Shown here: piece after piece, positions 21,854 through 63,597 of the stretch | Numbering within the stretch: position 1 is the stretch's first letter | Layout: every line of letters starts with the position of its first letter | Origin: Bdellovibrionales bacterium | GTDB taxonomy: Bacteria > Bdellovibrionota > Bdellovibrionia > Bdellovibrionales > JAUICD01 | Length of the DNA stretch: 64,000 nucleotides | NCBI GenBank assembly: GCA_965203275.1 | Contig: OZ241865.1 | Coordinates: 608,001-672,000, forward strand | Direction of reading: 5' to 3' | Translations under genes and position numbers: made by a program | Notes under the pieces: model-generated | Told to the model about the DNA's origin: nothing | The model's database searches: none | The model's input: only the letters and a program-made list of their open reading frames with translations

Positions 21854-21876
21854 AATGTTCTTTGAATAACCTTTAG

Positions 21877-21909
21877 GCTATGGGTTTACAAGCCCATAGC
21901 TTTTATTTT
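21877..21909 (+). terminator. Rho-independent terminator after pilin
   Basis: GCTATGGGTT/AGCCCATAGC stem followed by TTTTATTTT. Confidence 0.75.
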
Positions 21910-21913
21910 ATCT

Positions 21914-22429
21914 TTGGAGAGTATAATCATGTTTAAAATAAGAAAAGCAATCAAATATTTAGCAAAGCCGAGACAATTTATGTATTTATTGGCTTTATTG
22001 GTCGTGGTTTGGATACATGCCTTTTATTTAATTTATAAATATAACTATCTAGCAGCCGAGGCCAAGACTGAAAGAAACCTTGAAAAGTATGAATTATCTC
22101 TTAACAAAACAATGCAAATAGATATTAACACTGGCCGGATGGCTTACGATGGTGTATTTGATCCGGATGAGGCTATCAGGGATAAGACAGTAGGTACTTT
22201 TGAGAGGTTTATCAATATATGTGATCGTGCTACATGTCGAGTGATCAGTGGGTTAAACCCGACAATTGATGTTTGCAATAAAGAGCTGTCAACATCCAGG
22301 ACTTTTCATAAGTATAGAGTGTATTCATGTAGTTTAAAAATCACAGTAGAAAATAATGAGCCTATGAATTGTACGAGGGTCAATTGGAGTGATGTAAAGG
22401 GCTTTTGTAAAAAATTAAATGATACATAA
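21914..22429 (+). CDS. Hypothetical protein with N-terminal TM and Cys-rich domain
   Basis: 171-aa ORF; real start probably the MFK codon after GGAGAG. Confidence 0.65.
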   Translation: MESIIMFKIRKAIKYLAKPRQFMYLLALLVVVWIHAFYLIYKYNYLAAEAKTERNLEKYELSLNKTMQIDINTGRMAYDGVFDPDEAIRDKTVGTFERFINICDRATCRVISGLNPTIDVCNKELSTSRTFHKYRVYSCSLKITVENNEPMNCTRVNWSDVKGFCKKLNDT

Positions 22430-22508
22430 ACCTTTTTGAGAACTTAATTATGAGTTTTCATTTTACAGAAGGGCCAAATGGCCCTTCTGTTTTTAATAGG
22501 GGGGATAT

Positions 22509-22829
22509 ATGGACAAAGTTTTAGAACGATTAGTATTTGCTCTTATGATTATATGTTTACTGCCTCTTATCTTAATGTCTGTATTTATAGGTTTCTTTTC
22601 AATACCTTATATGATATTTTTTGAGACTTTTTTAGGCCCGATTTTAGGAAGGATAGCCGGCCTCTTGATGGGACTTTATTTTATTTATCTTTTTTGGGGA
22701 TCTGAAAATAAAATATTTATGATATGTTTTTTGGTGTTTTTTTATTTCTTTGCAGTTTTTAGTAGGATGCGGTTACTTCAATCGCTTGTTAATATGGAAA
22801 AAAGAAAGGATGCATCTCTACGGAATTAA
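22509..22829 (+). CDS. Small multi-TM membrane protein
   Basis: AGGGGGG RBS; about 3 hydrophobic helices. Confidence 0.6.
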   Translation: MDKVLERLVFALMIICLLPLILMSVFIGFFSIPYMIFFETFLGPILGRIAGLLMGLYFIYLFWGSENKIFMICFLVFFYFFAVFSRMRLLQSLVNMEKRKDASLRN

Positions 22830-23019
22830 AAAATACCGACGTTAAATAGACATAACCTTTAATTTTAAAGTTTAAGCATGATCGAATATACGGGCCGTTT
22901 GCTACGGCCCTTATATTCTTATTTACACAATTTCTTTTTTAATTTTTAAGCTTTTCATTTTTATACAATCCTTCTTAATTCATTCTTAAAAGTTATACAC
23001 ACTTTAAAAAAATGACTTA

Positions 23020-23144
23020 TTTTGTTTTGTTGAGGATTTGATTGAGTTGATCAGTAAAGTCTTTTTCTGCTTTGTTAAGGCGATCTTCACAGGGTTTTCT
23101 GATACGGTTTTTGATGTTCCCTCCTTCTGTTTGTTAAGTGACCG
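23020..23144 (-). pseudogene. Duplicated, frameshifted 3' fragment of gene 27047-27541
   Basis: Near-identical direct repeat of 27065-27193 with small deletions. Confidence 0.85.
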
Positions 23145-23305
23145 ATGTGAGACATTCAAAAAAGGTCAACAATGATATAATTATTATAAAAAACATCCAA
23201 GAAATACCTTGGAGTTTGACTTAAGTTTTTAAGATACGACTCTCAGAGGTTTAAGGCAGTAAGACTCTCTCATAAAAGCCAGTCCTTAAAAATTCTTTGA
23301 TATCA

Positions 23306-26300: not shown

Positions 26301-26977
26301 TTTTTTCTAAAATCTTCCCACCATTGAGGGTGAAGACAGAAGGCTTCAAGGTTTTTAGAAATTGGTAGATTGACATGAAATTCAGGTGTGTATCTATCTC
26401 CTAATGTTTTTCTTGATCTATTTGCTAAGTCTTCAAGCTTTTTAGAAGATAATACAGTTTCATCGAACCAAAATAAAGCCTTACCAGAATATTCTGGATC
26501 ATCAATGGTTAAGAAATTTGTTATTTCATGTTTCCCCCAATATTCAATTTCAATATTACGATTTTTCTCATTAGCAAGATTTTTCCATTTTTTGACATGT
26601 TCATTCCATTTGTCCTCAAAAGATTCGGATTGCTTATTTTTATTTTGCTTTCTACTATCAGGTTTATCAAAAGGCAGACAAATGATATATTTTATTAATT
26701 TAGGATGTTTATTTAAAGCTGTTTCAAATGAGTTACACAGCTGGGTCCATTGGGATGATTTCATTCCATCTATAAAATACTTTGCTTGCCAGCATATCTC
26801 AGATTCATCAGTTAATACCCAATAACATTCAACGCCCGCATCACCTCCTAGGCCTTTCCTTATAAAATGTGATGCATTCTGAGGTTTTTGTAGACGGGCC
26901 AATTGACAAATGAGTTCTTCAAATCCAAAATTTTGACTTCCGTTATATGGTCTGATTTTAGAGAAATCAATATTCAT
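23306..26977 (-). CDS. STAND/NACHT NTPase with N-terminal restriction-like nuclease domain, AVAST (Avs2-like) anti-phage protein
   Basis: FEELICQLA...GDAGVE...WQAKYF (PD-QxK-type nuclease), GDAGIGKS Walker A, IMIDAINE Walker B, LLSCR, NPLFL, ERIGKKYQWIA, RDIDP. Confidence 0.72.
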   Translation of the reverse strand: MNIDFSKIRPYNGSQNFGFEELICQLARLQKPQNASHFIRKGLGGDAGVECYWVLTDESEICWQAKYFIDGMKSSQWTQLCNSFETALNKHPKLIKYIICLPFDKPDSRKQNKNKQSESFEDKWNEHVKKWKNLANEKNRNIEIEYWGKHEITNFLTIDDPEYSGKALFWFDETVLSSKKLEDLANRSRKTLGDRYTPEFHVNLPISKNLEAFCLHPQWWEDFRKKVQELNERSEDFFRGFIDSSDKDNIKKLQIQYSQLRDNLLNGLKHKNILSCINEIKKQIDSIEKNPDVLNFFINDELNNRRLFRRFSNALYQLSEFLDSKFLRAAKVGVALLYGDAGIGKSHLMCDIALYRVKNKLPIIFLLGSQYGGSDPISLIKNSLDLEHYTNSQVLGAIDALGERSGSRTLIMIDAINEGLHKEDWQNHLSGFLSQISQFKNIAILLSCRSTYLKYLLPDNIHKEMSGDQSLNSTNEESLVPIKHPGFQGCERRATEIYLSKQGISKPSMPVLYPEFTNPLFLKFDRMKNFEGHHLDILLKLSTEPSHPWNADFLHKSLVNKTMPERDSYWSTYLALNYTSESIIQDIIEWSHSGNIEKVEEERIRLCAIVLFWFLTTSNRRLRDRATKSLVRMLSQYPSLLLNLLCKFHSVNDLYLVERLYAVVYGVICNVSSDHQLISKIAEATFKFVFEDAKPHILLRDYARGILEFTLCKGLLPQHIKVQQFRPPYKSRWPIENPSNKQIEEIAGSISIIKHSVINGDFGKYIMRCVHDFSPTSLNQPFPETPEDLREKFAKEKLDKEDREEYDRWLSSLRNDPAEFSRKWAQRWVCQRAYQLGWSEKLFLNFERKIRNFQYTDRKTPLPERIERIGKKYQWIAFHELLAYLSDNVHFIGERFDDSNEQKYKGPWQIWVRDIDPTIWIRKNGEYKSSHNKSNTWWQPYQFSFHKIENIEDQKKYLWNKKQIPDFSKLLQIENPNNKNSWSVLSGYWHEQQKESIEDKDAPRLNGWFSIESICVPKKDCHLIEKNLENKYIASSEMLEFPSIDDQKFFGEHPWHFNCQLISGWGHLDINSIRSKYESLGSIRCFVPYLKYHWEQGNQDYSIDDTISFYTPPREFIKDLNLNRTSDFGSWQDKDNVVFCDPSIKEYGPSYALMESHKLKEWLAQKDLELFWLVSGEKELFSFSFKDGFYGIVTYKGLFKLVDEVPKGSIYFEEERPPVKINP

Positions 26978-27046
26978 TTTTAGTCCTTTTTAGGTATCTA
27001 AGGTATTTTAATATCAAGAAAACTTTTATAATATAAAAAATCATTA

Positions 27047-27541
27047 TTATTGGCTTGTTTTGTCTTTTGTTTTGTTGAGGATTTGATTGAGTTGATCAGT
27101 AAAGTCTTTTTCTGCTTTGTTAAGGCGATCTTCACAGGGGTTTTCTGATACGGTTTTTGATGTTCCCTCCTTTTGTTGTTTGTTAAGTGACCGGTTCGTA
27201 CAACCAATGTAATCAAGAACCCCCTTGTTTCTGGTATCACAAAGGTTGTTGATTCTTTTACAGGCATCATCTGATCGTTGGAATTGTTCAAATGTTCTCA
27301 TATTAGCCGATGTGCTGACACTGTTATTGCTATTGACAATAAAGACCAAGTAATTACACTTACAAAAGCTCTTGATCTCTTGTGCGTAAGTGGACTGTGT
27401 ATGTAAAAACATAAACAATAAAGCTATAAAAATAAATTTACAAATCACTATCTTTAAAGGACGAATATTAAAATGTTGCTCTTGAGCAAAGCACCTGATA
27501 TTTTTTATTATAAATTGAAAGTTTCTATCTTGATCATTCAT
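27047..27541 (-). CDS. Hypothetical, probably chimeric (ATPase-like first ~29 aa fused to secreted Cys-containing protein)
   Basis: IIKNIRCFAQEQHFNIRPL followed by signal-peptide-like FIFIALLFMFLHTQSTYA. Confidence 0.5.
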   Translation of the reverse strand: MNDQDRNFQFIIKNIRCFAQEQHFNIRPLKIVICKFIFIALLFMFLHTQSTYAQEIKSFCKCNYLVFIVNSNNSVSTSANMRTFEQFQRSDDACKRINNLCDTRNKGVLDYIGCTNRSLNKQQKEGTSKTVSENPCEDRLNKAEKDFTDQLNQILNKTKDKTSQ

Positions 27542-27598
27542 TCTATGTCCTTCTAAACTATATGAAACTAAACTGTATTAAAAAAACAAACTATTCCA

Positions 27599-30163
27599 TC
27601 AAAGGGATTCTACAGCAAAGCTCTCAATCCCTCGATCATCTACGATTTTGACAGCAATTCTTTTATGTTCTTCTGCCTCAAAAGGGATAGACTCTGTCCC
27701 TTGAAATTTATCTATAAGATCTTCATTGATCTCTGATTTTAATGTTTTCTTAAGCTTAGACCATCCATCCTTATTGCCAGAAGGAGGGAAGAATACCTGA
27801 CGTGGATATAAACAGCGATCATCATAATTGGTATCTAACATCCAAAGTGCAATCTTGTTTTTACCTCCAGAGATGATTTCATCTGTTCTAGTATCAAAAT
27901 AATCAAACCCTTCCACACGGGCAATGTATTTGCCTTTATGCTCACCCTTTTTGATTTTTTCTATCTGCACATCTGGTTCACCTATTAACCAAAAGCTTTT
28001 CTCTTTTTCATTTTTTATTTTCTGTTTAAGATCAAAGGTAAATAAGTCATTGTTCATTTGCACTTTCAATATTTTTGTTTTGCCTATGTTTATTTCTTGT
28101 ATATCTTTAGAACAGTCAGCATCAAATTGAAAGGCACAAAAGATCACCAAGTCAGTTCGATAAACCTTAGCTTCTGTAAGAGCTTCTTCCACTTGACGCT
28201 TTTCTAAAAGAGAGTAAGGGGAAGTAAAACACACAATAACTTTTTGCCCATCTTGAGTTTCACCCTCTGCATGGATGTACTGAGCATCATGGATGAGTTC
28301 AAGCCTTGTAAATGCAATATCCTTAGAAAGCCCCTTTTTCCCTCTAATGCCATTTTGTTTAAGATTGTCAAACCATTCTGCTTCAAATTTGATTTGCTCT
28401 CCATAAGGTTTGTCTTTGGTGGTACTTTCTACCCTTGTGGCAGGCACAGCTTCCACAGTAAAAGGCCCAGACACACGCAATTTTGTTTTATCTATAAGAG
28501 GTTGATCGTATAGTATTTCTTGCGGGGCATGGCGTGCGATCGCCTCCTCTATGGCTTTTTGACTCATGCCTTCTTTGATGTCTGGATTGTTAGCAATAGA
28601 TTTTAAGGTGATGTGAGGGACTGTCTTGTAGTTAAAGCCACTACTGACACCTTGGGCAGGTTCTTTGATTTGGTAATAGTCAAATGTGGCTGTCATTAAT
28701 CTTTGTTTAGCCAGAGCAAGGGCTACACGAGAGGTGTCACAGGTAATCCAACGACGCCCCCACTTTTCTGCCACGTAAGCCGTTGTGCCACTACCACAAG
28801 TGGGGTCAAGGACAAGGTCGCCTGGATCTGTGGTCATTAAGATACAACGCTGGATGACTTTTTCATTCGTTTGTACAATATATTTTAAATCTGTTGCTCC
28901 CATTAGGTCAGACCATATATTAGTCAAAGAAGTCACCGGGAAGTCTCTAAACATCATTTTATATCTTATACTATTTTTTGAAATTAATAATCTTCTAGCC
29001 TTGTGTAATTTTTTAATTCCTTCTAATGTTGTTTTCCAATGAGCATTATTGCGAGGCTTAAAGGTTTGTCCATTGATTTCTATTTCTCTTGATCCCATTT
29101 CAGATGAACCAGATGATTCCATAGAAACAGATTGAAAAATAAAATCTTTGTTTTTATTAAAATAAGAAATATTCTTGTCTTCTTGAGTAATAGATGTGAT
29201 TTCTTTTTTATTTTTATTTTCAATAAAATTGTAACTTTTTAGTAAGTGCAAAGAAGATGAACGATCCATGTATAATTTTCTCCATTTAGTCATTTTTTTG
29301 TTTTTTCCATAACAAATAATATAATCACATGTATTTGACATATAATTTGATGGAAGACTACCAGTCTTTTGAAATGTGATATTAGTGACAAAATTTTCTT
29401 TGCCAAAAATTTCATCCATTAAATTACGCACAAGATGGACATTTTCGTCAGAGATTTGCACAAAGCAAGAGCCACTTTCTGTCAATAGCTCCTTTGCTAG
29501 TAACAACCGATCACGAAGATAAGTCAAATAAGAGTGAATGCCAAGCTCCCATGTATCTCGAAAAGCTTTGATCATCTCAGGCTCTGCCGTAAGGTCTTCG
29601 TCTTTACGATCTTGCACATTTCTTTTGCCAATAAAAGGTTGAAAATTAGAGCCGTACTCAATGCCGTAAGGTGGGTCAATATAGATGCACTGCACTTTAC
29701 CAGCCATTGCCTCTTTTTGCAGAAGGGAGTTCATCACCAAAAGAGAATCACCAGCAATCAAACGATTGCTCCAAAGCTTTTCATGTTGATAAAATTCAAT
29801 TTCTTTTTTGATAGGCCTTTGTTCTGTCGGATTATGGAAAAAGCACAATTGCCGAGTGTCAATGGTGTTTCTCTTGCGAACAATCTCAATAATGCTTCGA
29901 GGGTCTATTTTTTCATGAATATGAAGGGGAACAAGAGGCACTTCAAAAGAAAGCCTCTCAGCTTTACCTGCCCAATCAAGTTGTGGGTCAAAATGTGGGT
30001 CATATTTGTACTGATCGGATTTTAACCCGTGTGAGTATTTTTGAGTTTTCACAAGAGGCTTATCTGTTGTAGAAGTCACAAGCCCTACCTGCGGGTTGTT
30101 AGCCCTTCTTTGCCCCTTATGTTTATAAATCTCAATTGTCTTTTGTGTGATCTGCTTTGCCAT
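27599..30163 (-). CDS. Type III-like Mod subunit, N6-adenine DNA methyltransferase
   Basis: NRLIAGDSL, IYIDPPYG catalytic motif, LDPTCGSGTT SAM motif, C-terminal AVKIVDDRGIE. Confidence 0.93.
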   Translation of the reverse strand: MAKQITQKTIEIYKHKGQRRANNPQVGLVTSTTDKPLVKTQKYSHGLKSDQYKYDPHFDPQLDWAGKAERLSFEVPLVPLHIHEKIDPRSIIEIVRKRNTIDTRQLCFFHNPTEQRPIKKEIEFYQHEKLWSNRLIAGDSLLVMNSLLQKEAMAGKVQCIYIDPPYGIEYGSNFQPFIGKRNVQDRKDEDLTAEPEMIKAFRDTWELGIHSYLTYLRDRLLLAKELLTESGSCFVQISDENVHLVRNLMDEIFGKENFVTNITFQKTGSLPSNYMSNTCDYIICYGKNKKMTKWRKLYMDRSSSLHLLKSYNFIENKNKKEITSITQEDKNISYFNKNKDFIFQSVSMESSGSSEMGSREIEINGQTFKPRNNAHWKTTLEGIKKLHKARRLLISKNSIRYKMMFRDFPVTSLTNIWSDLMGATDLKYIVQTNEKVIQRCILMTTDPGDLVLDPTCGSGTTAYVAEKWGRRWITCDTSRVALALAKQRLMTATFDYYQIKEPAQGVSSGFNYKTVPHITLKSIANNPDIKEGMSQKAIEEAIARHAPQEILYDQPLIDKTKLRVSGPFTVEAVPATRVESTTKDKPYGEQIKFEAEWFDNLKQNGIRGKKGLSKDIAFTRLELIHDAQYIHAEGETQDGQKVIVCFTSPYSLLEKRQVEEALTEAKVYRTDLVIFCAFQFDADCSKDIQEINIGKTKILKVQMNNDLFTFDLKQKIKNEKEKSFWLIGEPDVQIEKIKKGEHKGKYIARVEGFDYFDTRTDEIISGGKNKIALWMLDTNYDDRCLYPRQVFFPPSGNKDGWSKLKKTLKSEINEDLIDKFQGTESIPFEAEEHKRIAVKIVDDRGIESFAVESL

Positions 30164-40207: not shown

Positions 40208-40513
40208 ATGAGTTACTTGGTTTTGTGGGAGAGAATAGATAAATATTTTAAACAGCATGGCATGATCACTTTTATTGTTCTATGTATGTTTATTTTACTT
40301 TTGTATTTAACTTATCAAGTAAGTAATCATATCCCTACAGAGATTAAAGAGCTTAGGGTAGAGCTTAAAGAAGACATTAAAGGGCTTAGGATAGAGCTTA
40401 AAGAAGACATTAAAGAACTTAGGATAGAGCTTAAAGAAGACATTAAAGAAATTAAAAATGGGCAAGATATGATCATTAATCATTTACTTAATAATAATAA
40501 AAAAGGTCAATAA
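40208..40513 (+). CDS. Small membrane-anchored coiled-coil protein (11-aa repeats), copy 1
   Basis: GGGGG RBS, TM helix, NHIPTEI, (IELKEDIKELR)n. Confidence 0.85.
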   Translation: MSYLVLWERIDKYFKQHGMITFIVLCMFILLLYLTYQVSNHIPTEIKELRVELKEDIKGLRIELKEDIKELRIELKEDIKEIKNGQDMIINHLLNNNKKGQ

Positions 40514-40877
40514 AAAAACACTTTCCTCACTGATTCTGCCGATAAAAATAATGCCGTTCGACTCATAACCTACTGATTTTAATCAACTTTATTTTTGCTG
40601 GCTATCAAACTCAGGATTTATTTTGAGTGAACCAAAGGAACTTTTTCCTTAACATCGTGTAAAGAGAAAAAAGGATCCTCCCTACTCAAAATAAATGGAT
40701 TTTCTAGGCAGTTAGCCTTTGATCGACGACGATAGTCGTCGGGCTAACTGCCAGAAAACATGCCAGAGGCATGATGCATTTTGAGTGAAAATGACGGCTG
40801 GTTTACTTTTAGTGAAAAATATGAAGAAGAACTTTTTATTCTGTATAGTTCAGGGGCAATTAGCACACGGGGGAAAA

Positions 40878-41204
40878 ATGAGTTACTTGGTTTTGTGGGA
40901 GAAAATAGATAAATATTTTAAACAGCATGGCATGATCACTTTTATTGTCCTATGTATGTTTATTTTACTTTTTTACTTAACTTATCAAGTAAGTAATCAT
41001 ATCCCTACAGAGATTAGAGAGGTTAAAGAAGACATTAAAGAAGTTAAGATAGAGCTTAAAGAAGACATTAAAGAGCTTAGGATAGAGGTTAAAGAAGACA
41101 TTAAAGAGCTTAGGATAGAGCTTAAAGAAGACATTAAAGAAATTAAAAATGGGCAAGATATGATCATTAATCATTTACTTAACAATAATAAAAAAGGTCA
41201 ATAA
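40878..41204 (+). CDS. Small membrane-anchored coiled-coil protein, copy 2 (108 aa)
   Basis: Start set at MSY by homology to 40208; one extra 7-aa unit. Confidence 0.85.
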   Translation: MSYLVLWEKIDKYFKQHGMITFIVLCMFILLFYLTYQVSNHIPTEIREVKEDIKEVKIELKEDIKELRIEVKEDIKELRIELKEDIKEIKNGQDMIINHLLNNNKKGQ

Positions 41205-45182: not shown

Positions 45183-45259
<77 letters not shown>

Positions 45260-45261
45260 TT

Positions 45262-46115
45262 TGTCTCACTAAAAATAAACCAGCCGTTTGTTTCACTCAA
45301 AATAAATCATGCCTCTGGCATGTTTTCTGGCAGTTAGCCCGACGGCTACCGCCGTCGATTAAAGGCTAACTGCCTAGAAAATTCATTTATTTTGAGTAGA
45401 GAGGATCCTTTTATTCCTTTACACCATGTTAAGGAAAAAGTTCCTTCATCTGCTGCTGGCAACCTCAAAAGTCCGTTTACTTTTAGTAGGAAGTTAGTTG
45501 TTTCACTAAAAGTAAACTAGCCTCTGGCTACTTTTGGATAGCCAGCCCGACGGCTACCGCCGTCGATCAAAGGCTGGCTATCTCAAAAGTCCGTTTACTT
45601 TTAGTAGGAAGTTAGTTGTTTCACTCAAAATGAGCCACACCTCTGGTGTGTTTTTTGATGTTGCCTGCAAAGGCTTTCGCCTTTGACAAAATGGTCATCG
45701 TCTCAAAAGCCTGTTCACTTTGAGTAAGGAGGATCCCTTCGTTTTTTTACACCATGTTAAGGAAACAAGACGTTCATTTTTTTGTTTTTTTTATTTTCTT
45801 TTAGATTCTGCATAATTTTCAAAAAAGCATAAATATTATGAGGGGAGGCGGGAGCAGGCTGAAGATCTTCCGCAGACCCGCTTGCTCTCCAAAAGCAAGC
45901 GAAGGTTGAGGACTTCGGAAGCCTGCACCCGCATTCCACTCATAAAAAACATACAAATAGAAAAGCAGAATCAAAGGGTGGCGGGTGGGGTTAGGGATAA
46001 TCCTTTGGATGCCCCGGATCCCAGAAAAAATCAACACGATGTTAAGGAAACAAGATGTTTGTTTCCCGTCGACAAAATGGTCATTGCCTCAAAAGCCTGA
46101 CCACTTTTAGTGAAA
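45262..46115. repeat. Repeat mosaic between tRNA-Asp and the gene array
   Basis: Structured copies at about 45291-45397, 45500-45605, 45619-45725; G-rich module 45908-46055. Confidence 0.9.
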
Positions 46116-46133
46116 CGAATAAGAGTTCATGGG

Positions 46134-46643
46134 TTACTCTGGTGGTTTTTGTTTAGTTAATTCATTAGATAAATGTTGATTCAATAAATTTAATATATCC
46201 CTATAGTTTTGATTATTTTCTTTTACCATGTCGTCAACTTTTTTCTCAAGCTTACTGATCTGTGTAGGTATATGATTGTATACTTGTTCTTGGATAGGCT
46301 TAATTGTAGCAACCAGTAGATCTCTTAAGTTATTTTCTGATTGGTTTACCAATTCCCTTAAGTTATTCTCTGATTGGTTTACCTGTTCCTTTAAGCTATT
46401 TACCAGTTCTTTTAAGTTATTTTCTGATTGGTTTACCAATTCCCTTAAGTTATTTTCTGATTTGTCTATCCGTTCATTTAATTTATTTTCTGATTTGTCT
46501 ATCCGTTCATTTAATCTATTTTCTGATTGAGTTGTCCTTTTCACCGCTCTATCATAAAGAAAAAAGCCCATAAAAGATATAGCCATGATTGTCGGTAGGT
46601 CTAAATATTCAACTATCTTTAAAATAAATTCATAGAAACCCAT
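46134..46643 (-). CDS. Array paralog 9: TM-anchored SEN-repeat coiled-coil protein (169 aa, N-term type A)
   Basis: GAAGGAGG RBS; conserved termini; variable 11/18-aa modules. Confidence 0.9.
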   Translation of the reverse strand: MGFYEFILKIVEYLDLPTIMAISFMGFFLYDRAVKRTTQSENRLNERIDKSENKLNERIDKSENNLRELVNQSENNLKELVNSLKEQVNQSENNLRELVNQSENNLRDLLVATIKPIQEQVYNHIPTQISKLEKKVDDMVKENNQNYRDILNLLNQHLSNELTKQKPPE

Positions 46644-46771
46644 AATGTCCTCCTTCGTTATACCATCACCTTATCAATATAAAAAAGCATCCCACTAGCT
46701 ATATTGGTAAGCCTTTTTAGGTTTTCTGTATTTTCTTTAGCCATTTCTTCTCTTATAAAAGAGTTCATGGT

Positions 46772-47227
46772 TTACTCTGGTGGTTTTTGTTTAGTTAATT
46801 CATTAGATAAATGTTGATTCAATAAATTTAATATATCCCTATAGTTTTGATTATTTTCTTTTATCATGTTGTCAACTTTTTTCTCAAGCGTACTGATCTG
46901 TGTAGGTATATGATTGTATACTTGTTCTTGGATAGGCTTAATTGTAGCAGTCAGTAAATCCCTTAAGTTATTTTCTGATTGCTTTACTAATTCCCTTAAG
47001 TTATTTTCCAGTCGGTCTATCCGTTCATTTAAGTTATTCTCTGATTTGTTTACTAATTCCCTTAAGTTATTTTCTGATTTGTCTATCCGTTCATTTAATC
47101 TATTTTCTGATTGAGTTGTCCTTTTCACCGCTCTATCATAAAGAAAAAAGCCCATAAAAGATATAGCCATGATTGTTGGTAGGTCTAAATATTCAACTAT
47201 CTTTAAAATAAATTCATAGAAACCCAT
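46772..47227 (-). CDS. Array paralog 8 (151 aa, type A)
   Basis: Same architecture and RBS. Confidence 0.9.
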   Translation of the reverse strand: MGFYEFILKIVEYLDLPTIMAISFMGFFLYDRAVKRTTQSENRLNERIDKSENNLRELVNKSENNLNERIDRLENNLRELVKQSENNLRDLLTATIKPIQEQVYNHIPTQISTLEKKVDNMIKENNQNYRDILNLLNQHLSNELTKQKPPE

Positions 47228-47355
47228 AATGTCCTCCTTCGTTATACCATCACCTTATCAATATAAAAAAGCATCCCACTAGCTATATTGGTAAGCCTTT
47301 TTAGGTTTTCTGTATTTTCTTTAGCCATTTCTTCTCTTATAAAAGAGTCCATGGT

Positions 47356-47778
47356 TTACTCCGGTGGTTTCTGTTTAGTTAGTTCATTAGATAAATGTTG
47401 ATTCAATAAATTTAATATATTCTTATAGTTTTGATTATTTTCTTTTATCATGTCGTCAACTTTTTTCTCAAGCTTATTGATCTGTGTAGGTATATGATTG
47501 TATACTTGTTCTTGGATAGGCTTAATTGTAGCAGTCAGTAAATCTCTTAAGTTATTTTCTGATTGGCTTATCCGTTCATTTAAGTTATTCTCTGATTTGT
47601 TTACTAATTCCCTTAAGTTATTTTCTGATTTGTCTATCCGTTCATTTAATCTATTTTCTGATTGAGTTGTCCTTTTCACCGCTCTATCATAAAGAAAAAA
47701 TCCCATAAAAGATATAGCCATGATTGTCGGTAGGTCTAAATATTCAACTATCTTTAAAATAAATTCATAGAAACCCAT
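47356..47778 (-). CDS. Array paralog 7 (140 aa, type A)
   Basis: Same architecture and RBS. Confidence 0.9.
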   Translation of the reverse strand: MGFYEFILKIVEYLDLPTIMAISFMGFFLYDRAVKRTTQSENRLNERIDKSENNLRELVNKSENNLNERISQSENNLRDLLTATIKPIQEQVYNHIPTQINKLEKKVDDMIKENNQNYKNILNLLNQHLSNELTKQKPPE

Positions 47779-47907
47779 AATGTCCTCCTTCGTTATACCA
47801 TCACCTTATCAATATAAAAAAAGCATCCCACTAGCTATATTGGTAAGCCTTTTTAGGTTTTCTGTATTTTCTTTAGCCATTTCTTCTCTTATAAAAGAGT
47901 TCATGGT

Positions 47908-48351
47908 TTACTCCGGTGGTTTTTGTTTAGTTAGTTCATTAGATAAATGTTGATTCAATAAATTTAATATATCCCTATAGTTTTGATTATTTTCTTTTAC
48001 CATGTCGTCAACTTTTTTCTCAAGCTTACTGATCTGTGTAGGTATATGATTGTATACTTGTTCTTGGATAGGCTTAATTGTAGCAACCAGTAGATCTCTT
48101 AAGTTATTTTCTGATTGGTTTACTAATTCCCTTAAGTTATTTTCTGATTGGTTTACTAATTCCCTTAAGTTATTCTCTGATTGGTTTACCTGTTCCTTTA
48201 AGCTATTTACCAGTTCTTTTAAGTTATTTTCTGATTTGTCTATCCGTGTCATCGCTCTATCATAAAAAAACAAGCCAACACCAACTATACCTATAATTGT
48301 CCATACGTCTAAAGTTTCAAATGCCTTTAAAACAAATTCATAGAAACCCAT
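47908..48351 (-). CDS. Array paralog 6 (147 aa, N-term type B)
   Basis: Alternative TM segment VLKAFETLDVWTIIGIVGVGLFF. Confidence 0.9.
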   Translation of the reverse strand: MGFYEFVLKAFETLDVWTIIGIVGVGLFFYDRAMTRIDKSENNLKELVNSLKEQVNQSENNLRELVNQSENNLRELVNQSENNLRDLLVATIKPIQEQVYNHIPTQISKLEKKVDDMVKENNQNYRDILNLLNQHLSNELTKQKPPE

Positions 48352-48480
48352 AATGTCCTCCTTTGTTATACCATCACCTTATCAATATAAAAAAAGCATC
48401 CAACTAGCTATATTGGCAAGCCTTTTTAGGTTTTCTGTATTTTCTTTAGCCATTTCTTCTCTTATAAAAGAGTTCATGGT

Positions 48481-48891
48481 TTACTCCGGTGGTTTCTGTT
48501 TAGTTAATTCATTAGATAAATGTTGATTCAATAAATTTAATATATCCTTATAGTTTTGATTATTTTCTTTTACCATGTCGTCAACTTTTTTCTCAAGCTT
48601 ACTGATCTGTGTAGGTATATGATTGTATACTTGTTCTTGGATAGGCTTAATTGTAGCAGTCAGTAGATCTCTTAATTTATTTTCTGATTGGTTTACTAAT
48701 TCCCTTAAGTTATTCTCTGATTGGTTTACCTGTTCCTTTAAGCTATTTACCAGTTCTTTTAAGTTATTCTCTGATTTGTCTATCCGTGTCATCGCTCTAT
48801 CATAAAAAAACAAGCCAACACCAACTATACCTATAATTGTCCATACGTCTAAAGTTTCAAATGCCTTTAAAACAAATTCATAGAAACCCAT
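48481..48891 (-). CDS. Array paralog 5 (136 aa, type B)
   Basis: Alternative TM segment as in 47908. Confidence 0.9.
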   Translation of the reverse strand: MGFYEFVLKAFETLDVWTIIGIVGVGLFFYDRAMTRIDKSENNLKELVNSLKEQVNQSENNLRELVNQSENKLRDLLTATIKPIQEQVYNHIPTQISKLEKKVDDMVKENNQNYKDILNLLNQHLSNELTKQKPPE

Positions 48892-49020
48892 AATGTCCTC
48901 CTTTGTTATACCATCACCTTATCAATATAAAAAAAGCATCCAACTAGCTATATTGGCAAGCCTTTTTAGGTTTTCTGTATTTTCTTTAGCCATTTCTTCT
49001 CTTATAAAAGAGTCCATAGC

Positions 49021-49509
49021 TTACTCCGGTGGTTTCTGTTTAGTTAGTTCATTAGATAAATGTTGATTCAATAAATTTAATATATCCTTATAGTTTTGAT
49101 TATTTTCTTTTATCATGTTGTCAACTTTTTTCTCAAGCTTACTGATCTGTGTAGGTATATGATTGTATACTTGTTCTTGGATAGGCTTAATTGTAGCAAC
49201 CAGTAGATCTCTTAAGTTATTTTCCAGTCGGTCTATCCGTTCATTTAATCTATTTTCTGATTGGTTTACCAATTCCCTTAAGTTATTTTCTGATTTGTCT
49301 ATCCGTTCATTTAATTTATTTTCTGATTGGTTTATTCGTTCATTTAATTTATTTTCTGATTTGTCTATCCGTTCATTTAATCTATTTTCTGATTGAGTTG
49401 TCCTTTTCACCGCTCTATCATAAAGAAAAAAGCCCATAAAAGATATAGCCATGATTGTCGGTAGGTCTAAATATTCAACTATTTTTAAAATAAATTCATA
49501 GAAACCCAT
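49021..49509 (-). CDS. Array paralog 4 (162 aa, type A)
   Basis: Same architecture and RBS. Confidence 0.9.
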   Translation of the reverse strand: MGFYEFILKIVEYLDLPTIMAISFMGFFLYDRAVKRTTQSENRLNERIDKSENKLNERINQSENKLNERIDKSENNLRELVNQSENRLNERIDRLENNLRDLLVATIKPIQEQVYNHIPTQISKLEKKVDNMIKENNQNYKDILNLLNQHLSNELTKQKPPE

Positions 49510-49637
49510 AATGTCCTCCTTCGTTATACCATCACCTTATCAATATAAAAAAGCATCCCACTAGCTATATTGGTAAGCCTTTTTAGGTTTTCTGTATTTT
49601 CTTTAGCTATTTCTTCTCTTATAAAAGAGTCCATGGT

Positions 49638-50114
49638 TTACTCCGGTGGTTTTTGTTTAGTTAGTTCATTAGATAAATGTTGATTCAATAAATTTACTAT
49701 ATCCTTATAGTTTTGATTATTTTCTTTTATCATGTTGTCAACTTTTTTCTCAAGCGTACTGATCTGTGTAGGTATATGATTATATACTTGTTCTTGGATA
49801 GGCTTAATTGTAGCAGTCAGTAATTCCCTTAAGTTATTCTCTGATTTGTTTACTAATTCCCTTAAGTTATTCTCTGATTGGTTTACCTGTTCCTTTAAGC
49901 TATTTACCAGTTCTCTTAAGTTATTTTCTGATTGGTCTATCCGTTCATTTAATCTATTTTCTGATTTGTCTATCCGTTCATTTAATCTATTTTCTGATTG
50001 AGTTGTCCTTTTCACCGCTCTATCATAAAGAAAAAATCCCATAAAAGATATAGCCATGATTGTCGGTAGGTCTAAATATTCAACTATCTTTAAAATAAAT
50101 TCATAGAAACCCAT
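49638..50114 (-). CDS. Array paralog 3 (158 aa, type A)
   Basis: Same architecture and RBS. Confidence 0.9.
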   Translation of the reverse strand: MGFYEFILKIVEYLDLPTIMAISFMGFFLYDRAVKRTTQSENRLNERIDKSENRLNERIDQSENNLRELVNSLKEQVNQSENNLRELVNKSENNLRELLTATIKPIQEQVYNHIPTQISTLEKKVDNMIKENNQNYKDIVNLLNQHLSNELTKQKPPE

Positions 50115-50243
50115 AATGTCCTCCTTCGTTATACCATCACCTTATCAATATAAAAAAAGCATCCCACTAGCTATATTGGTAAGCCTTTTTAGGTTTTCTG
50201 TATTTTCTTTAGCCATTTCTTCTCTTATAAAAGAGTTCATGGT

Positions 50244-50819
50244 TTACTCCGGTGGTTTTTGTTTAGTTAGTTCATTAGATAAATGTTGATTCAATAAATT
50301 TAATATATCCCTATAGTTTTGATTATTTTCTTTTACCATGTCGTCAACTTTTTTCTCAAGCTTACTGATCTGTGTAGGTATATGATTGTATACTTGTTCT
50401 TGGATAGGCTTAATTGTAGCAACCAGTAGATCTCTTAAGTTATTTTCTGATTGGTTTACCTGTTCCTTTAAGCTATTTACCAGTTCTTTTAAGTTATTTT
50501 CTGATTGGTCTATCCGTTCATTTAATCTATTTTCTGATTGGTTTACCAATTCCCTTAAGTTATTCTCTGATTTGTCTATCCGTTCATTTAACTTATTTTC
50601 TGATTTGTCTATTCGTTCATTTAATCTATTTTCTGATTTGTCTATCCGTTCATTTAAGTTATTTTCTGATTTGTCTATCCGTTCATTTAATCTATTTTCT
50701 GATTGAGTTGTCCTTTTCACCGCTCTATCATAAAGAAAAAATCCCATAAAAGATATAGCCATGATTGTTGGTAGATCTAAATATTCAACTATTTTTAAAA
50801 TAAATTCATAGAAACCCAT
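50244..50819 (-). CDS. Array paralog 2 (191 aa, type A)
   Basis: Same architecture and RBS. Confidence 0.9.
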   Translation of the reverse strand: MGFYEFILKIVEYLDLPTIMAISFMGFFLYDRAVKRTTQSENRLNERIDKSENNLNERIDKSENRLNERIDKSENKLNERIDKSENNLRELVNQSENRLNERIDQSENNLKELVNSLKEQVNQSENNLRDLLVATIKPIQEQVYNHIPTQISKLEKKVDDMVKENNQNYRDILNLLNQHLSNELTKQKPPE

Positions 50820-50948
50820 AATGTCCTCCTTCGTTATACCATCACCTTATCAATATAAAAAAAGCATCCCACTAGCTATATTGGTAAGCCTTTTTAGGTT
50901 TTCTGTATTTTCTTTAGCCATTTCTTCTCTTATAAAAGAGTTCATGGT

Positions 50949-51491
50949 TTACTCCGGTGGTTTTTGTTTAGTTAGTTCATTAGATAAATGTTGATTCAAT
51001 AAATTTAATATATCCCTATAGTTTTGATTATTTTCTTTTACCATGTCGTCAACTTTTTTCTCAAGCTTACTGATCTGTGTAGGTATATGATTGTATACTT
51101 GTTCTTGGATAGGCTTAATTGTAGCAACCAGTAGATCTCTTAAGTTATTTTCTGATTGGTTTACCTGTTCCTTTAAGCTATTTACCAGTTCTTTTAAGTT
51201 ATTTTCTGATTGGTCTATCCGTTCATTTAATCTATTTTCTGATTGGTTTACCAATTCCCTTAAGTTATTCTCTGATTTGTCTATCCGTTCATTTAACTTA
51301 TTTTCTGATTTGTCTATTCGTTCATTTAATCTATTTTCTGATTTGTCTATCCGTTCATTTAATCTATTTTCTGATTGAGTTGTCCTTTTCACCGCTCTAT
51401 CATAAAGAAAAAATCCCATAAAAGATATAGCCATGATTGTTGGTAGGTCTAAATATTCAACTATCTTTAAAATAAATTCATAGAAACCCAT
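50949..51491 (-). CDS. Array paralog 1 (180 aa, type A), first in transcription order
   Basis: Same architecture; unique sequence upstream of about 51540. Confidence 0.9.
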   Translation of the reverse strand: MGFYEFILKIVEYLDLPTIMAISFMGFFLYDRAVKRTTQSENRLNERIDKSENRLNERIDKSENKLNERIDKSENNLRELVNQSENRLNERIDQSENNLKELVNSLKEQVNQSENNLRDLLVATIKPIQEQVYNHIPTQISKLEKKVDDMVKENNQNYRDILNLLNQHLSNELTKQKPPE

Positions 51492-51829
51492 AATGTCCTC
51501 CTTCGTTATACCATCACCTTATCAATATAAAAAAAGCATTAAAAAGTGCATAATCATAAAATATTATCTAAAGCCCGTCTAGCAAAAAACACCAGGAACA
51601 TACTATTTATGTATCGTCAGAGTTTAGTCTGACTTTAATCAAAATTGTATAGAGTTGGTTTTATTTTGTAGCTTTGGCATTTAACAATAGCTTTAAAATC
51701 TCTGTATGTCCTTTTTCACTAACTCACATCTTTTTAAAGTATAAAAAGCCGTCTTAAGCATCAATATCAATAAAGTCGGCTACGTAATTATCTTACTATG
51801 AAACAACATTAAAGTCAAGTCTTTTTTAT

Positions 51830-52450
51830 CTGCCAGATCCCGTATCCCGGGAGTGAAACAGAGGCTAGTTCAATTTTAGTGAGACAAACGCGGTCATTGC
51901 CCAAAAACATGGGTGTAAGAATGAACTTTTTCCTTAACATGTGGTCAAGAGACAAAGAGATCCTTCCTACTCAAAGTGAACAGACTTTTGAGACAATGAC
52001 CATTTTGCCAACGGCGAAAGCCGTTGCGGTCATTGTCCAAAAGTGGCCAGAGGCCAGTTCACTTTGAGTGAACCAATGGCATTGCTCTTTTTGGACAGCG
52101 ATAGCTGTCAGAGCAATGTCCAAAAGTAGCCAGAGGCTAGTTTACTTTTAGTGAAAATCAAATGAGGCAATGACCATTTTGTCAACGGCGTAAGCCGTTG
52201 CGGTCGAAAGGTGTAAGAAAGAACTTTTTCCTTAACATGGTGTCAATTCGGGATCCGGAATCCGAGATCCGGGATCAGGTAACCCGGCAACCCGGCAAAA
52301 AAAAACTTTTTCCTTAACATGGTGTCAAAAAGCAAGAGGATCCTTTCTACTAAAAGTAAACGGACTTTTGAGACATTGCTCTTTTTGGACAGCGATAGCT
52401 GTCAGAGCAATGTCCAAAAGTAGCCAGAGGCTAGTTTACTTTTAGTGAAA
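51830..52450. repeat. Repeat mosaic (structured copies and CCGG/GATC runs)
   Basis: Full copies at about 51969-52072 and 52348-52450, plus fragments. Confidence 0.9.
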
Positions 52451-53558
52451 AAAAATGTAGAGCTTTTTGGGTTGACTCAATGGCTTGTTTATATTGCTGA
52501 TATACAAAATCATCATAGATTTCCATATCTACAAGGATTGTCCGGGTGCCTTCATTTTCAGGTGTGGTAGGGTCATCATTGTACAAATAAAACAAATTCG
52601 AACCAAAAGTATTACCATAAACACCATATTGACTAAAACCATTGGCATCTCGATGTGTTGTATCATACCACTTTTCCCAAGTGACAGACCTACGCTCAAA
52701 AATATTGGGATTAGTTATAACAGAAATAGGCACTTCTTGACTTAAAGAACGCAAAGTTTTTTTAGCACCTTCATCTAGTATTTCAAAAAGTGTTTGAGGA
52801 GTTGCATTTTTAAAATGACATATTGTATCTAAGGAACTCGCGTTTGATTCCTCAACAATCCTTTCTAATATCTTTATCCGATTTGTATAGCTCTCAAAAC
52901 CATCTTGAAAAGGGACTATATTCCAATCAGAGATAGAAAAATGCATAATAGGTACAACATGTGTCGGAGAAGACATATCTTGCAAATGATGAATAGCTTG
53001 CCCTAATAAATAAAAATATTGTTTGTCATCTGACTGCTGATTGTTCCCCCAGGATGGATAAAGGTCACCTTGATTTATAGTGTCAATCAAGTCCTCTTGA
53101 CTGTAATAAAGAGAGGGTGATGGTGGGTTTAAAGGACCCATCATCCGTTGCATAATGTTGTGTTGACATCTATGATCCCAAAATAAATCAAATGCACTGA
53201 TTGTTTGTCTTTTCAGGTATCCTTGTAAAATTTGCTCAATATGTAAAATACGATAGCTAGAAGGACATCTATCAATTATATTAAACCATTTGGCATTTAC
53301 ATAAACATAAGGGTTATAAAAGTGGGAGTATTGTAGCATTTTGTTAAAGTAATAAGTGTCTTCTTGTAAATTAGCTTCAATAATTATATTAGATAGTTCT
53401 TCAAAGTCCTGCCCTCTTTGGATACTCGGTGATTCATATTGAAAACAAGTCGTAAATTCTTTAATGGCTATCTTGGTAAGCTCCGCATGGTCATTCAATG
53501 CAAGGCTGTATAAGTATGTAGGACTAGAAAAAATAAATAATATAATAAGTATTTGCAT
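52431..53558 (-). CDS. Secreted zinc-dependent phospholipase C/P1-nuclease-like protein
   Basis: Signal peptide, early His (NDH), HFYNP, LGQAIHHLQDMSSPTH, FE. Confidence 0.7.
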   Translation of the reverse strand: MQILIILFIFSSPTYLYSLALNDHAELTKIAIKEFTTCFQYESPSIQRGQDFEELSNIIIEANLQEDTYYFNKMLQYSHFYNPYVYVNAKWFNIIDRCPSSYRILHIEQILQGYLKRQTISAFDLFWDHRCQHNIMQRMMGPLNPPSPSLYYSQEDLIDTINQGDLYPSWGNNQQSDDKQYFYLLGQAIHHLQDMSSPTHVVPIMHFSISDWNIVPFQDGFESYTNRIKILERIVEESNASSLDTICHFKNATPQTLFEILDEGAKKTLRSLSQEVPISVITNPNIFERRSVTWEKWYDTTHRDANGFSQYGVYGNTFGSNLFYLYNDDPTTPENEGTRTILVDMEIYDDFVYQQYKQAIESTQKALHFFSLKVN

Positions 53559-61891: not shown

Positions 61892-62383
61892 TTAGCTGAT
61901 CATTTCAATCAATTGCTTTAATGTGGATACTGTATCTTTTTTTTTGCTTAATTTTTCTTTAGGGAACAACTGTCTAAATTGAAGTTTTCTACCTTTGTAA
62001 TGTTCATTAAAATACTTTTTACATTCTTGTGAGTTGTTCATTTTAGGGTAGCCATTGAGTATTTGAAGCCATAGATTTTCTAAACATATTGGCGACCATA
62101 TTAAAATGATGTCTTGTTTTTTAGCTTCCTTTTCTTTTTGTTTTTTGTCATCTTCACTAAGACAATCAGAATCTAAGAAAATATATTTTTCTTTATATTC
62201 GACAGCATGATTATATTTCACAGCATTTTGAATTATTATCGAAGGTCCACCACCCTGTCCTGGTTGTACCTTAATTGTTTTATTCTTACAGAATATGGAT
62301 TTTAAATGTTTGACAAAATCACAATCCCTTTGACCTTCACAGTAAATAAGTATAGTATGCCTTAATTTATTTCTTCTTGTCAT
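61892..62383 (-). CDS. RloB-like (TOPRIM-type) protein
   Basis: LIYCEG..D..F, FLDSD, SPICLENLW; directly downstream of an AAA_21 ATPase. Confidence 0.75.
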   Translation of the reverse strand: MTRRNKLRHTILIYCEGQRDCDFVKHLKSIFCKNKTIKVQPGQGGGPSIIIQNAVKYNHAVEYKEKYIFLDSDCLSEDDKKQKEKEAKKQDIILIWSPICLENLWLQILNGYPKMNNSQECKKYFNEHYKGRKLQFRQLFPKEKLSKKKDTVSTLKQLIEMIS

Positions 62384-62415
62384 GATTTATATTTTCCATA
62401 TATATCTTCCAAAAT

Positions 62416-63597
62416 TTAAATATCAGGGACTCCACCGTAAGTACCGGCTAAATATTTTTTAGCTAAATCATCATCTGATCGGACACCTTCTATTTCATCA
62501 AGTCTATAAATTTCGCTTTCACAGTCTTTGTTTTTCTCAGTTAAAAATACCTGATATTTTGAGAGTAGCCTCAGTATAATAGGTGCATGGATGGTACACA
62601 ATAGCTGAGAGCCGTGAGGGTTGGTTTCTGGTTGTATAAATAAATTACAAATAAACAGTAGCATATCCGGATGTAAAGAAGATTCAAATTCATCTATCAC
62701 ACAAGGTGTACCCTTTTTTAGAGAAGGTAAAATAAGCCTAAGTAGAGTATAGATCTGTTGTGTTCCATGAGATTCTTCCATGAAAGGAAGCATAAAGTGT
62801 TTGTTTTTATGTTGATGTTGTCCAAAAGCAAGATATAATATCTCTTCTTTTTGACTTGATTTTCTAACGCCTTTTCCTTTTTTTATTTGAACATCACTTA
62901 ACCCCAGATCCATTTTTCTGATGTAATCCTTAGCTTCATTAAAATAATCTTTATTTTTAAAGTAAAAATAAGAAGTTTTGAATATTTCTTCAATTGAAGC
63001 ATGATTACGATGAAGTGAGAAAGCCATGTTGCTCCAATATTCCTTGATTTGAAAGAGCTTTTCATTATTGAGCTGTACTGCTGTGGATACAACAGAGGCA
63101 TTGGGCCTGACCATATTAATAAAGTCTTTTTTAAGTTTTAACTCATCGGTAGCTTTAAAAGTATAGGAATTTGTAGTAGGATTATACTCTCTTGAATACA
63201 AATTACGCATTTTCTGTTCAGGCCGATAGTCTAAGCTTTCTAACAAGACTCTTTCTTTATTGATCTTTAAGCGAAACCTATAAAGCTTCTGCTCTATATA
63301 AAACTCTACTTCAAAAGAGGATGGTTGGTCTTCTTGGAGTCTATAAGCATTATATAATACATGCCTCGGTTTTAAAAAAAATGAATCAACAATAAACTTT
63401 TTCAAGTAAAATAGAGATCCCAGTGCATTGCTTTTCCCTGAACCATTAGCTCCTAGGATGGTTGATATTTTTGATAGACGATCAGAACCACATTTTTTAA
63501 AGGCATAAGTTTTCGGAGCATGTTCATTGACTAAAAAGTCAATTGTTCCTTCACCAGAAAAAGATGCAAAATTACTAAACTTAATGGATTTGATCAT
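62416..63597 (-). CDS. AAA_21/ABC-type ATPase, RloA/AbiLi-like
   Basis: GANGSGKSN, EESHGT, IDEFESSLHP, QLLCTIH, KKYLAGTYGGVP. Confidence 0.88.
   Translation of the reverse strand: MIKSIKFSNFASFSGEGTIDFLVNEHAPKTYAFKKCGSDRLSKISTILGANGSGKSNALGSLFYLKKFIVDSFFLKPRHVLYNAYRLQEDQPSSFEVEFYIEQKLYRFRLKINKERVLLESLDYRPEQKMRNLYSREYNPTTNSYTFKATDELKLKKDFINMVRPNASVVSTAVQLNNEKLFQIKEYWSNMAFSLHRNHASIEEIFKTSYFYFKNKDYFNEAKDYIRKMDLGLSDVQIKKGKGVRKSSQKEEILYLAFGQHQHKNKHFMLPFMEESHGTQQIYTLLRLILPSLKKGTPCVIDEFESSLHPDMLLFICNLFIQPETNPHGSQLLCTIHAPIILRLLSKYQVFLTEKNKDCESEIYRLDEIEGVRSDDDLAKKYLAGTYGGVPDI

Follow-up and report, generated by a model that had tools for sequence, protein, structure and literature searches.

A nine-gene array of length-graded coiled-coil proteins is part of an 82-gene, motif-bearing family with an apparent phage link in a Bdellovibrionales genome

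The 64,000-nucleotide stretch analysed here (positions 608,001 to 672,000 of contig OZ241865.1, assembly GCA_965203275.1, from a Bdellovibrionales bacterium; hereafter ‘the window’) is part of a single 2.57-Mb contig and contains a tandem array of nine minus-strand genes encoding small coiled-coil proteins (Table 1). An earlier note on this DNA had described nine intact, co-oriented paralogs of 180, 191, 158, 162, 136, 147, 140, 151 and 169 residues, in that order, each with an AAGGAGG ribosome-binding site (RBS) and separated by spacers of 128–129 base pairs (bp), and had put the locus forward as a candidate for an undescribed system. The open reading frames (ORFs) were confirmed, all nine being intact and encoding distinct proteins (136–191 residues); AAGGAGG lies directly 5′ of the ATG in 9/9 genes, and the eight spacers measure 129 bp in five cases and 128 bp in three. 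The array does not, on the other hand, stand alone: the family to which it belongs has 82 genes at 42 loci in this genome and is defined by an N-terminal hydrophobic helix and the motif Q-V-x-N-H-I-P-T-Q-I within a coiled coil. This conserved N-H-I-P (NHIP) motif, which links the genes to proteins of phage lysis regions, had been overlooked.

Each array protein is built from a 39-residue N-terminus, two to seven modules and a 68-residue C-terminus, and its length equals 107 + 11a + 18b in every case, where a and b are the counts of 11- and 18-residue modules; no two genes are alike and the modules keep frame, as had been claimed. The 39 modules comprise 33 of 11 residues (17 DNA variants, 11 protein variants) and six of 18 residues. 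Q-V-Y-N-H-I-P-T-Q-I sits in the constant C-terminal part of all nine proteins. The N-terminus exists as two alleles, type A in 7/9 genes and type B in genes 5 and 6, which differ at about 24 non-synonymous sites over 39 codons. The DNA upstream of gene 1 has the same 48 bases that end each spacer, with the RBS and an extended −10-like site among them, and spacer bases 1–81 have no match outside the array. A sigma-70 scan called 37 sites where 30 were expected, none of them at array gene starts, and an Rfam search returned tRNA only. Each spacer also holds a frame of 23–28 codons from an ATG, which may be what is left of a different gene or may encode a small peptide.

Table 1. Coordinates of the nine-gene array, its flanks and two further family members in the window.
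Feature	Position	Strand	Length (residues)	N-terminus	Modules	Remarks
Gene 1	50949..51491	-	180	type A	5 x 11 + 1 x 18	NHIP motif, C-terminal coil
Gene 2	50244..50819	-	191	type A	6 x 11 + 1 x 18	C-terminal DNA identical with genes 1 and 6
Gene 3	49638..50114	-	158	type A	3 x 11 + 1 x 18	
Gene 4	49021..49509	-	162	type A	5 x 11	
Gene 5	48481..48891	-	136	type B	1 x 11 + 1 x 18	
Gene 6	47908..48351	-	147	type B	2 x 11 + 1 x 18	
Gene 7	47356..47778	-	140	type A	3 x 11	modelled as monomer and trimer
Family signature region of gene 7	47419..47544	-				Q-V-Y-N-H-I-P-T-Q-I and flanks; found in 9/9 genes
Gene 8	46772..47227	-	151	type A	4 x 11	
Gene 9	46134..46643	-	169	type A	4 x 11 + 1 x 18	
Spacer (example)	50820..50948	-				
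Other seven spacers	50115-50243, 49510-49637, 48892-49020, 48352-48480, 47779-47907, 47228-47355, 46644-46771					
Upstream of gene 1	51492..51539	-				48 bases; extended −10-like site and RBS; left edge of repeat unit
tRNA-Asp	45183..45259	+				neighbour only
Repeat mosaic 1	45261..46122	.				genome-wide abundant repeat, not array-specific
Repeat mosaic 2	51859..52454	.				same abundant repeat as mosaic 1
Family member	40208..40513	+	101			motif immediately after hydrophobic helix
Family member	40878..41204	+	108 (from ATG)			tandem partner of 40208..40513, one heptad longer

The family is abundant in this genome. Its motif pattern matched 75/6144 ORFs and none in each of five shuffles, and a profile recovered 82 ORFs at 42 loci, amounting to 1.3% of the genome and 3.8% of its genes: 27 single genes, nine pairs, and arrays of 3, 4, 5, 7, 9 and 9. 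The hydrophobic helix precedes the motif in 80/82 proteins, and a lipobox was found in 0/80. Variable coils lie before the motif in this nine-gene array and after it in others, and gene neighbours vary between the 42 loci, none being conserved. Pfam, NCBIfam, PHROGs and PADLOC searches with the array proteins gave generic coiled-coil matches only, with no curated family covering the motif; thus the full-length match to a characterised family that would have undone the earlier note did not appear. Short stretches above the Pfam cut-off (MbeB_N, Sec20, Mt_ATP-synt_B, DUF4456) were set aside, being partial and at odds with one another. The literature searched, bioRxiv supplements aside, did not describe the family, four spellings of the motif in full text yielding unrelated papers; a 2023 survey of hendecad protein families, reportedly by Martinez-Goikoetxea and Lupas, may cover it. 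The array is real and belongs to an apparently unnamed family with a phage link.

Four further family arrays lie, on the contig of this genome (G000 C1), at 209338-212474 (nine genes), 2207636-2211731 (seven), 585874-589044 (five) and 1938547-1940500 (four); those of seven and five genes are close relatives of each other, each beside a similar gene of 1155–1159 residues. A 389-residue member at C1:1059332-1060501 carries a very long repeated coil downstream of the motif. Within the window, the pair at 40208-41204 converges on a 785-residue protein with a C-terminal MepA-type murein endopeptidase domain.

Variation within the nine-gene array combines purifying selection on the ends with recombination among the copies. 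The ratio of non-synonymous to synonymous polymorphism (pN/pS), rough as it is for nine sequences, was 0.33 for the C-terminus, 0 for type A N-termini, and 0.18 and 0.59 for the two module classes; the motif residues N, H, P and Q are conserved though their codons differ, and 33/55 informative site pairs proved incompatible with a simple tree in a four-gamete test. The ends are thus conserved as first described, save for the two N-terminal alleles, whereas of the recombination-driven diversifying locus that had been inferred only the recombination stands, selection being purifying and no recombinase gene lying adjacent. Purifying selection with recombination fits unequal crossing-over and not programmed shuffling: for the array to have grown, it would be enough that genes were duplicated in tandem, crossed over unequally and slipped by whole units of 33 and 21 bases. 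We hold this anatomy, and an unprogrammed origin of the length variants, to be very probably right. Records from other assemblies (P0004, P0006 and P0018, with variants of the second array of nine) contain further module combinations of the kind anticipated, some of them from short contigs and possibly assembly chimeras. That the modules are instead actively shuffled, or that the proteins form a set of molecular rulers, each length with its own job, might be read from the nine different strings and lengths, from the placing of the motif 61–116 residues from the membrane, and from the recurrence of length-graded arrays in genomes G720 and G729; but no recombinase, reverse transcriptase or partner gene lies between window positions 44774 and 52431, and ordinary unequal crossing-over accounts for the pattern, leaving such a programme very improbable. 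Systems of programmed variation (silent cassettes, shufflons, diversity-generating retroelements) either feed a single expression site from silent cassettes or keep a recombinase or reverse transcriptase of their own close by, and the array does neither; a silent-cassette layout is excluded because each copy carries its own RBS and start.

Several tandem copies are well supported. Contig depth, which is a weak measure and gives no copy number, stood over the shared stretches at 6.4, 1.9 and 1.4 times that of the single-copy flank in run X1 and at 6.9, 2.1 and 1.4 times in run X2 (the two runs may be the source sample), where the assembly predicts 6.1–6.2, 1.8 and 1.1. A 450-base contig from sponge metagenome X10 bridges gene, spacer and gene of the array with four differences. 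The units are near-identical, and no read or contig among those searched covers the array from end to end, which leaves this assembly as the one source for a count of exactly nine; an assembler might in principle have expanded one or two genes, the collapse that the earlier note had named as its own refutation. Given nine distinct sequences with mosaic substitutions, depth ratios in agreement with the assembly, and an outside contig joining two genes, such an artefact is scarcely credible.

The setting of the array between repeat mosaics and next to tRNA-Asp, to which the earlier note drew attention, is present and incidental, since the repeat is not enriched at family loci and the tRNA end is not duplicated. 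A distance of 875 bp separates the array from the end of tRNA-Asp, and integration at the tRNA was rejected, its 3′ end being duplicated nowhere in the genome and no att-like duplication being seen. Placement by the repeat was likewise rejected: the abundant repeat makes up 5.8% of the chromosome, genome-wide, and flanks 15/42 family loci compared with 779/2051 other genes.

The proteins are predicted to be rods on a membrane anchor. A hydrophobic helix occupies residues 13–30 in 9/9 array proteins, and the monomer model of gene 7 (mean predicted local distance difference test, pLDDT, 84) is all helix, a short N-terminal helix followed by one long one. Array modules have 4-4-3 core spacing (hendecad), and in the motif itself hydrophobic columns are spaced 3-4-4-4 when 198 distinct motif blocks are compared, with N and H invariant and P near-invariant; 3-4-4-4 spacing is a 15-residue period in the terms of PMC4786415. 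Modelled as a trimer, gene 7 formed a parallel in-register bundle scoring 0.74 against 0.00 for the best of three controls, with contact agreement between runs of at least 94% and pLDDT of at least 83. The mark used was reached by 20/30 solved homo-pairs and 1/23 single chains, although the trimer job, with three copies and its own alignment, was unlike this calibration, and coiled coils may pass through likeness to solved ones. N94 and H95 of gene 7 are absent from the listed interface residues, a hint only that they may face outward. The rod models measure 15–23 nm, the motif being predicted to lie 9–17 nm from the membrane. Lysine and arginine are commoner after the helix in 63/80 family proteins of this genome and before it in 43/43 relatives with a C-terminal anchor, from which the coil is predicted to face the cytoplasm in both layouts. 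For the array proteins the prediction is thus one membrane helix, the C-terminus inside, and a parallel in-register oligomer; as a prediction, the length-graded set of membrane-anchored coiled coils proposed earlier is borne out.

A search of the monomer model against viral structures gave nothing at E ≤ 0.001, and PDB searches found only 4mu6 (E 0.013) and apolipoprotein. Residues 106-112 of chain A of 4mu6, which we take to be a Legionella effector, are the exact seven-residue motif core without its Q-V part. This borderline match is probably chance, though the coordinates could show the sequence folded in a helix.

Relatives carrying the motif come in two layouts. Its profile, run against 1.84 billion proteins, recovered 194 clusters at E ≤ 0.001, and N-H-[IL]-[PS] is kept in 148 of the best 150. 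Among 145 relatives scored for layout, 90 are N-anchored like the array proteins (78/90 being less than 65% identical to family members of this genome), another 43 are C-anchored and 12 lack a clear helix. The metagenome loci are C-anchored and phage-like in 24/24 cases, one being cut at a contig end and several being near-duplicates. Scans of their neighbours (55 against PHROGs, 40 against Pfam, many loci being only about 1 kb) found lytic-enzyme types at 5/24 loci (L054, L062, L065, L066, L067) and portal or tail genes at a few more. On two IMG/VR contigs the motif gene directly follows a large gene, glycine-rich or with a LamG domain, which we read as putatively tail-associated, and is itself followed by a holin (E 2e-15) or a peptidase. 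Relative L107 has a holin gene as neighbour, and at a prophage-like locus in G852 a motif member without a clear helix comes after tail, spanin-like and holin-like genes. For a C-anchored member the atlas gave viral ‘putative hemolysin XhlA’ as the nearest clusters (0.94); for an array protein it gave viral clusters without a name (0.91), a weak match with recognition below the tool's mark. N-anchored and C-anchored sets aligned at 98.9%, as is expected because both were collected with the motif. Common ancestry of the family with phage lysis-region proteins is, on these data, probable. A first viral-contig scan matched 47 stretches, none confirmed; an exact DNA pattern search found 0; and a phage-type member matched nothing credible among 50,697 phage records.

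Spread among bacteria is patchy. The NHIP profile was found in 0/40 near relatives and 0/400 genomes of the phylum of the window's organism, and N-anchored NHIP genes occur at seven places in a Leptospiria metagenome-assembled genome (OZ253494.1) and in 0 of 60 of its relatives. A sister motif without the proline, L-x-N-H-I-T-D-T, which marks N-H as the shared core, occurs once in the congeneric genome G001 and in 9/11 genomes of another genus of the order, within which matches range from 0 to 27 per genome. The one copy in G001 is degenerate, and three family-level relatives have no copy. In G720 four tandem copies encode 173, 151, 122 and 112 residues, so the same layout arose again, and G729 also has a length-graded array. 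The genomes with expansions are small (1.5–2.6 Mb). Sponge metagenomes yielded pieces that match the array, and the single-copy DNA on either side of it, at 95–99% identity; the species is therefore probably sponge-associated. Outside relatives P0020, P0022 and P0048 have two or three motif copies per chain, and in the Leptospiria genome NHIP genes (L043:1012-1356 and 3359-3703, L044:3329-3703) sit back to back with another repeated gene for a coiled coil, one in which the helix is internal and the C-terminal tail similar.

Tested against known systems, the array did not pass as Bdr, DUF1640, XhlA or spanin. XhlA (PF10779; PBSX XhlA) is, like the array proteins, a small coiled coil with one membrane helix, which in XhlA is C-terminal, and the C-anchored motif carriers share its genomic position between tail and holin/endolysin genes. 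The array proteins are by contrast N-anchored, outside any prophage, with no holin or endolysin beside them; the C-terminal helix is present in 0/9 of them and in 43/145 outside relatives, and PF10779 was not among the best 25 Pfam matches of four array proteins. The role of XhlA, which is required alongside a holin for lysis, is taken from PMC10630273 and PMC5589764. Weak PF10779 matches were found in 5/39 C-anchored and 4/70 N-anchored relatives. Borrelia Bdr proteins have a C-terminal anchor and vary in repeat number. The array resembles them in being multi-copy with variable repeat number, a similar pattern and not membership, and differs in its N-terminal helix and in that Bdr genes are dispersed on cp32 episomes. 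Bdr is described as multi-copy, inner-membrane-associated, prophage-linked and of unknown function in PMC10016077. No Bdr name came up for three array proteins in NCBIfam (E ≤ 0.001) or among the Pfam matches, the presence of a Bdr model in these libraries being unconfirmed. DUF1640/CCDC90-like proteins (PF07798) are also membrane-anchored coiled-coil stalks, defined by the beta-layer motif [aliphatic]-A-T-K-[polar]-[DE] (PMC4786415), but that motif is absent from the nine sequences, the model is all helix, and PF07798 is outside the best 25 matches. Rz-like inner-membrane spanins share the N-terminal helix and coiled coil, and weak spanin PHROG matches occur in 13/70 outside N-anchored relatives; the array differs in its predicted cytoplasmic stalk (from the charge bias in 63/80 family proteins) and in having no lipoprotein partner ORF, and 0/3 window proteins scanned matched a spanin family. 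In PADLOC the matches were partial, confined to coiled coils of long proteins such as ZorA, and none covered a defence protein in full length.

Among the functions that could be imagined, we tentatively favour, while regarding it as doubtful, one in which the nine genes encode cytoplasm-facing decoys against phage lysis. A lysis-accessory coiled coil would have been captured from a phage, its membrane anchor would then have moved from the C- to the N-terminus, and the gene would have been expanded into many copies, whose products might co-assemble with the infecting phage's own motif-bearing protein and so disturb lysis. Speaking for this are the phage setting, a coil predicted to be cytoplasmic in either layout, a patchy distribution and the fact that expansion has happened more than once, and of the roles offered by the earlier note the phage-related one gains some support. 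A good deal weighs on the other side. No phage of this host is known, and no motif-bearing phage sequence is tied to it. In a parallel complex of an N-anchored with a C-anchored chain the anchors would sit at opposite ends, and the complex must lie along the membrane. The homology has a base of about 25 residues with four near-invariant positions, and the motif block itself separates the layouts (nearest neighbour of the same layout in 106/121), so the host copies are not close mimics of the sampled phage proteins. The XhlA Pfam matches of C-anchored relatives are weak (5/39 at E ≤ 0.05, best 2.7e-4), as are those to two PHROG hemolysin families (6/39 each), and of phage-type proteins scanned singly 1/12 matched a hemolysin family. 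The charge bias is weaker in outside N-anchored relatives (after the helix in 51/90, before it in 24), and the gene 7 model suggests self-association without supporting the number three, the trimer being the sole oligomer state modelled where comparing several is the usual approach (PMC11651203). Nor was diversifying selection, which an arms race would often leave, seen among the nine array genes.

Four other accounts must be set beside the decoys. The proteins could form an abundant cytoplasmic coat of anchored rods by which the inner membrane is shaped or kept at a distance, variation in length being noise that is tolerated, comparable with a role proposed for Borrelia Bdr, which is inner-membrane-associated and prophage-borne (PMC10016077). 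Purifying selection, intact frames, strong RBSs, a −10-like site upstream of 34/82 family genes compared with 130/1306 other long ORFs, and rods modelled at 15–23 nm speak for such a scaffold; the single degenerate copy in G001 and the absence from three family-level relatives are odd for a structural need, and with no conserved neighbours over the 42 loci we consider it unlikely. Near-neutral birth and death, in which a host-associated genome rich in repeats lets small, self-contained genes increase in number while selection purges only harmful changes and a few copies do what work there is, would explain why loci are scattered without shared context, why a six-frame search gives 89 matches where there are 82 ORFs, some copies being split, interrupted by stops or devoid of an anchor, and why one genus spans 0 to 27 matches; one abundant repeat fills 5.8% of this genome. 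It sits poorly with nine intact genes at pN/pS below 1, with N, H, P and Q kept despite varying codons, and with expansion recurring in separate lineages, and is to us rather unlikely. Host-interaction proteins, either surface antigens or Inc/SNARE-like effectors varied for a sponge host, would accord with the sponge-metagenome pieces, with expansions in small genomes, and with the seven residues shared with 4mu6. That match is borderline, however, and lacks the Q-V part; diversifying selection is wanting; and the role loses support because charge predicts a cytoplasmic stalk and three secretion-system markers (FHIPEP, VirB4-type and VipB) were not found in this 90%-complete genome, a Dot/Icm-specific marker not having been searched. 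Chlamydial Inc and Legionella SNARE-like effectors need type III or IV secretion, for each of which one marker family was among those not found, and with the lipobox missing throughout such a role is improbable.

The remaining account is of domesticated lysis-type toxins that damage the membrane (in abortive infection, addiction or vesicle release) and are repressed by CRISPR-like RNAs, as in CrePA. The genome holds a Cas12a-like gene with cas1 and cas2, and 19 Cas12a-type handles lie outside the CRISPR array, a few probably by chance; a strict family gene is the nearest gene within 150 bp for 6/19 of these solitary handles, the family being only 3.8% of genes, and the likeness to CrePA is that of a small phage-derived gene beside a CRISPR-like RNA at 6/42 family loci. 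One RNA (C1:1546813) pairs in antisense, over 11 bases, with the start codon in each of the nine array genes; 12/16 genomic copies of its 11-mer are family starts, and the array starts rank 3rd of 1754 by duplex energy, with 1/40 shuffles as good. A phage-derived toxin repressed by CreA provides the precedent (10.1101/2024.01.05.574328). Against this, no handle lies near the nine-gene array, and sister RNAs match non-family starts over 11–12 bases, for which reason the start-codon match is a weak lead only. The RNA's target site has neither a TTTV protospacer-adjacent motif (PAM) nor a purine-rich 3′ flank, the PAM rule being that of 10.1101/2023.03.10.532045 and the protospacer-flanking-sequence rule that of PMC12851939. 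In 10.1101/2024.01.05.574328, CrePA is of type I-F, lies within the cas locus and has a PAM-flanked promoter target, none of which applies to the array. Terminase, amidase_2 and phage lysozyme were not found in the genome, 82 toxins with strong RBSs would be a heavy load, and we judge repression of toxins quite unlikely.

Beyond the array, the start codons of a second paralogous family, starting M-N-F-I-N-V and present at several loci of this genome (e.g. beside C1:1974820), match several stand-alone CRISPR-like RNAs over 10–11 bases. A 200-residue coiled-coil repeat protein near the Cas12a-like locus (L108:925-1527, or C1:232924-233526) is, in our reading, DUF1640/CCDC90-like. The lack of a recovered FHIPEP-family gene in this 90%-complete genome is unusual for a Bdellovibrio relative and implies that there is apparently no flagellar export apparatus. 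Elsewhere in the window, positions 14946-30163 hold what we read as type III restriction-modification-like res and mod genes, interrupted by a transposase, a pilin gene and a 1223-residue protein with a P-loop-like motif, and positions 61892-63597 hold an ATPase and small-protein pair that we read as RloA/RloB-like.

More broadly, and speculatively, small-genome, probably sponge-dwelling bacteria of two phyla may repeatedly have captured, flipped and expanded a phage coiled coil into a length-graded library of lysis-protein decoys, partly tied to stand-alone CRISPR-like RNAs, a picture we think unlikely to hold in full. An apparently unnamed family nonetheless makes up 3.8% of the genes here, and related genes have expanded in other small-genome lineages. 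Its motif links it to phage lysis regions, where XhlA-type accessory proteins are poorly understood, and the invariant N-H within a coiled coil offers a precise residue pair to mutate in both phage and host forms. If the genes do encode decoys, they would constitute a defence aimed at the lysis step and built from the phage's own part; even should that reading fail, they provide a clean series, made by nature, of coiled coils whose periods are 11, 15 and 18 residues.

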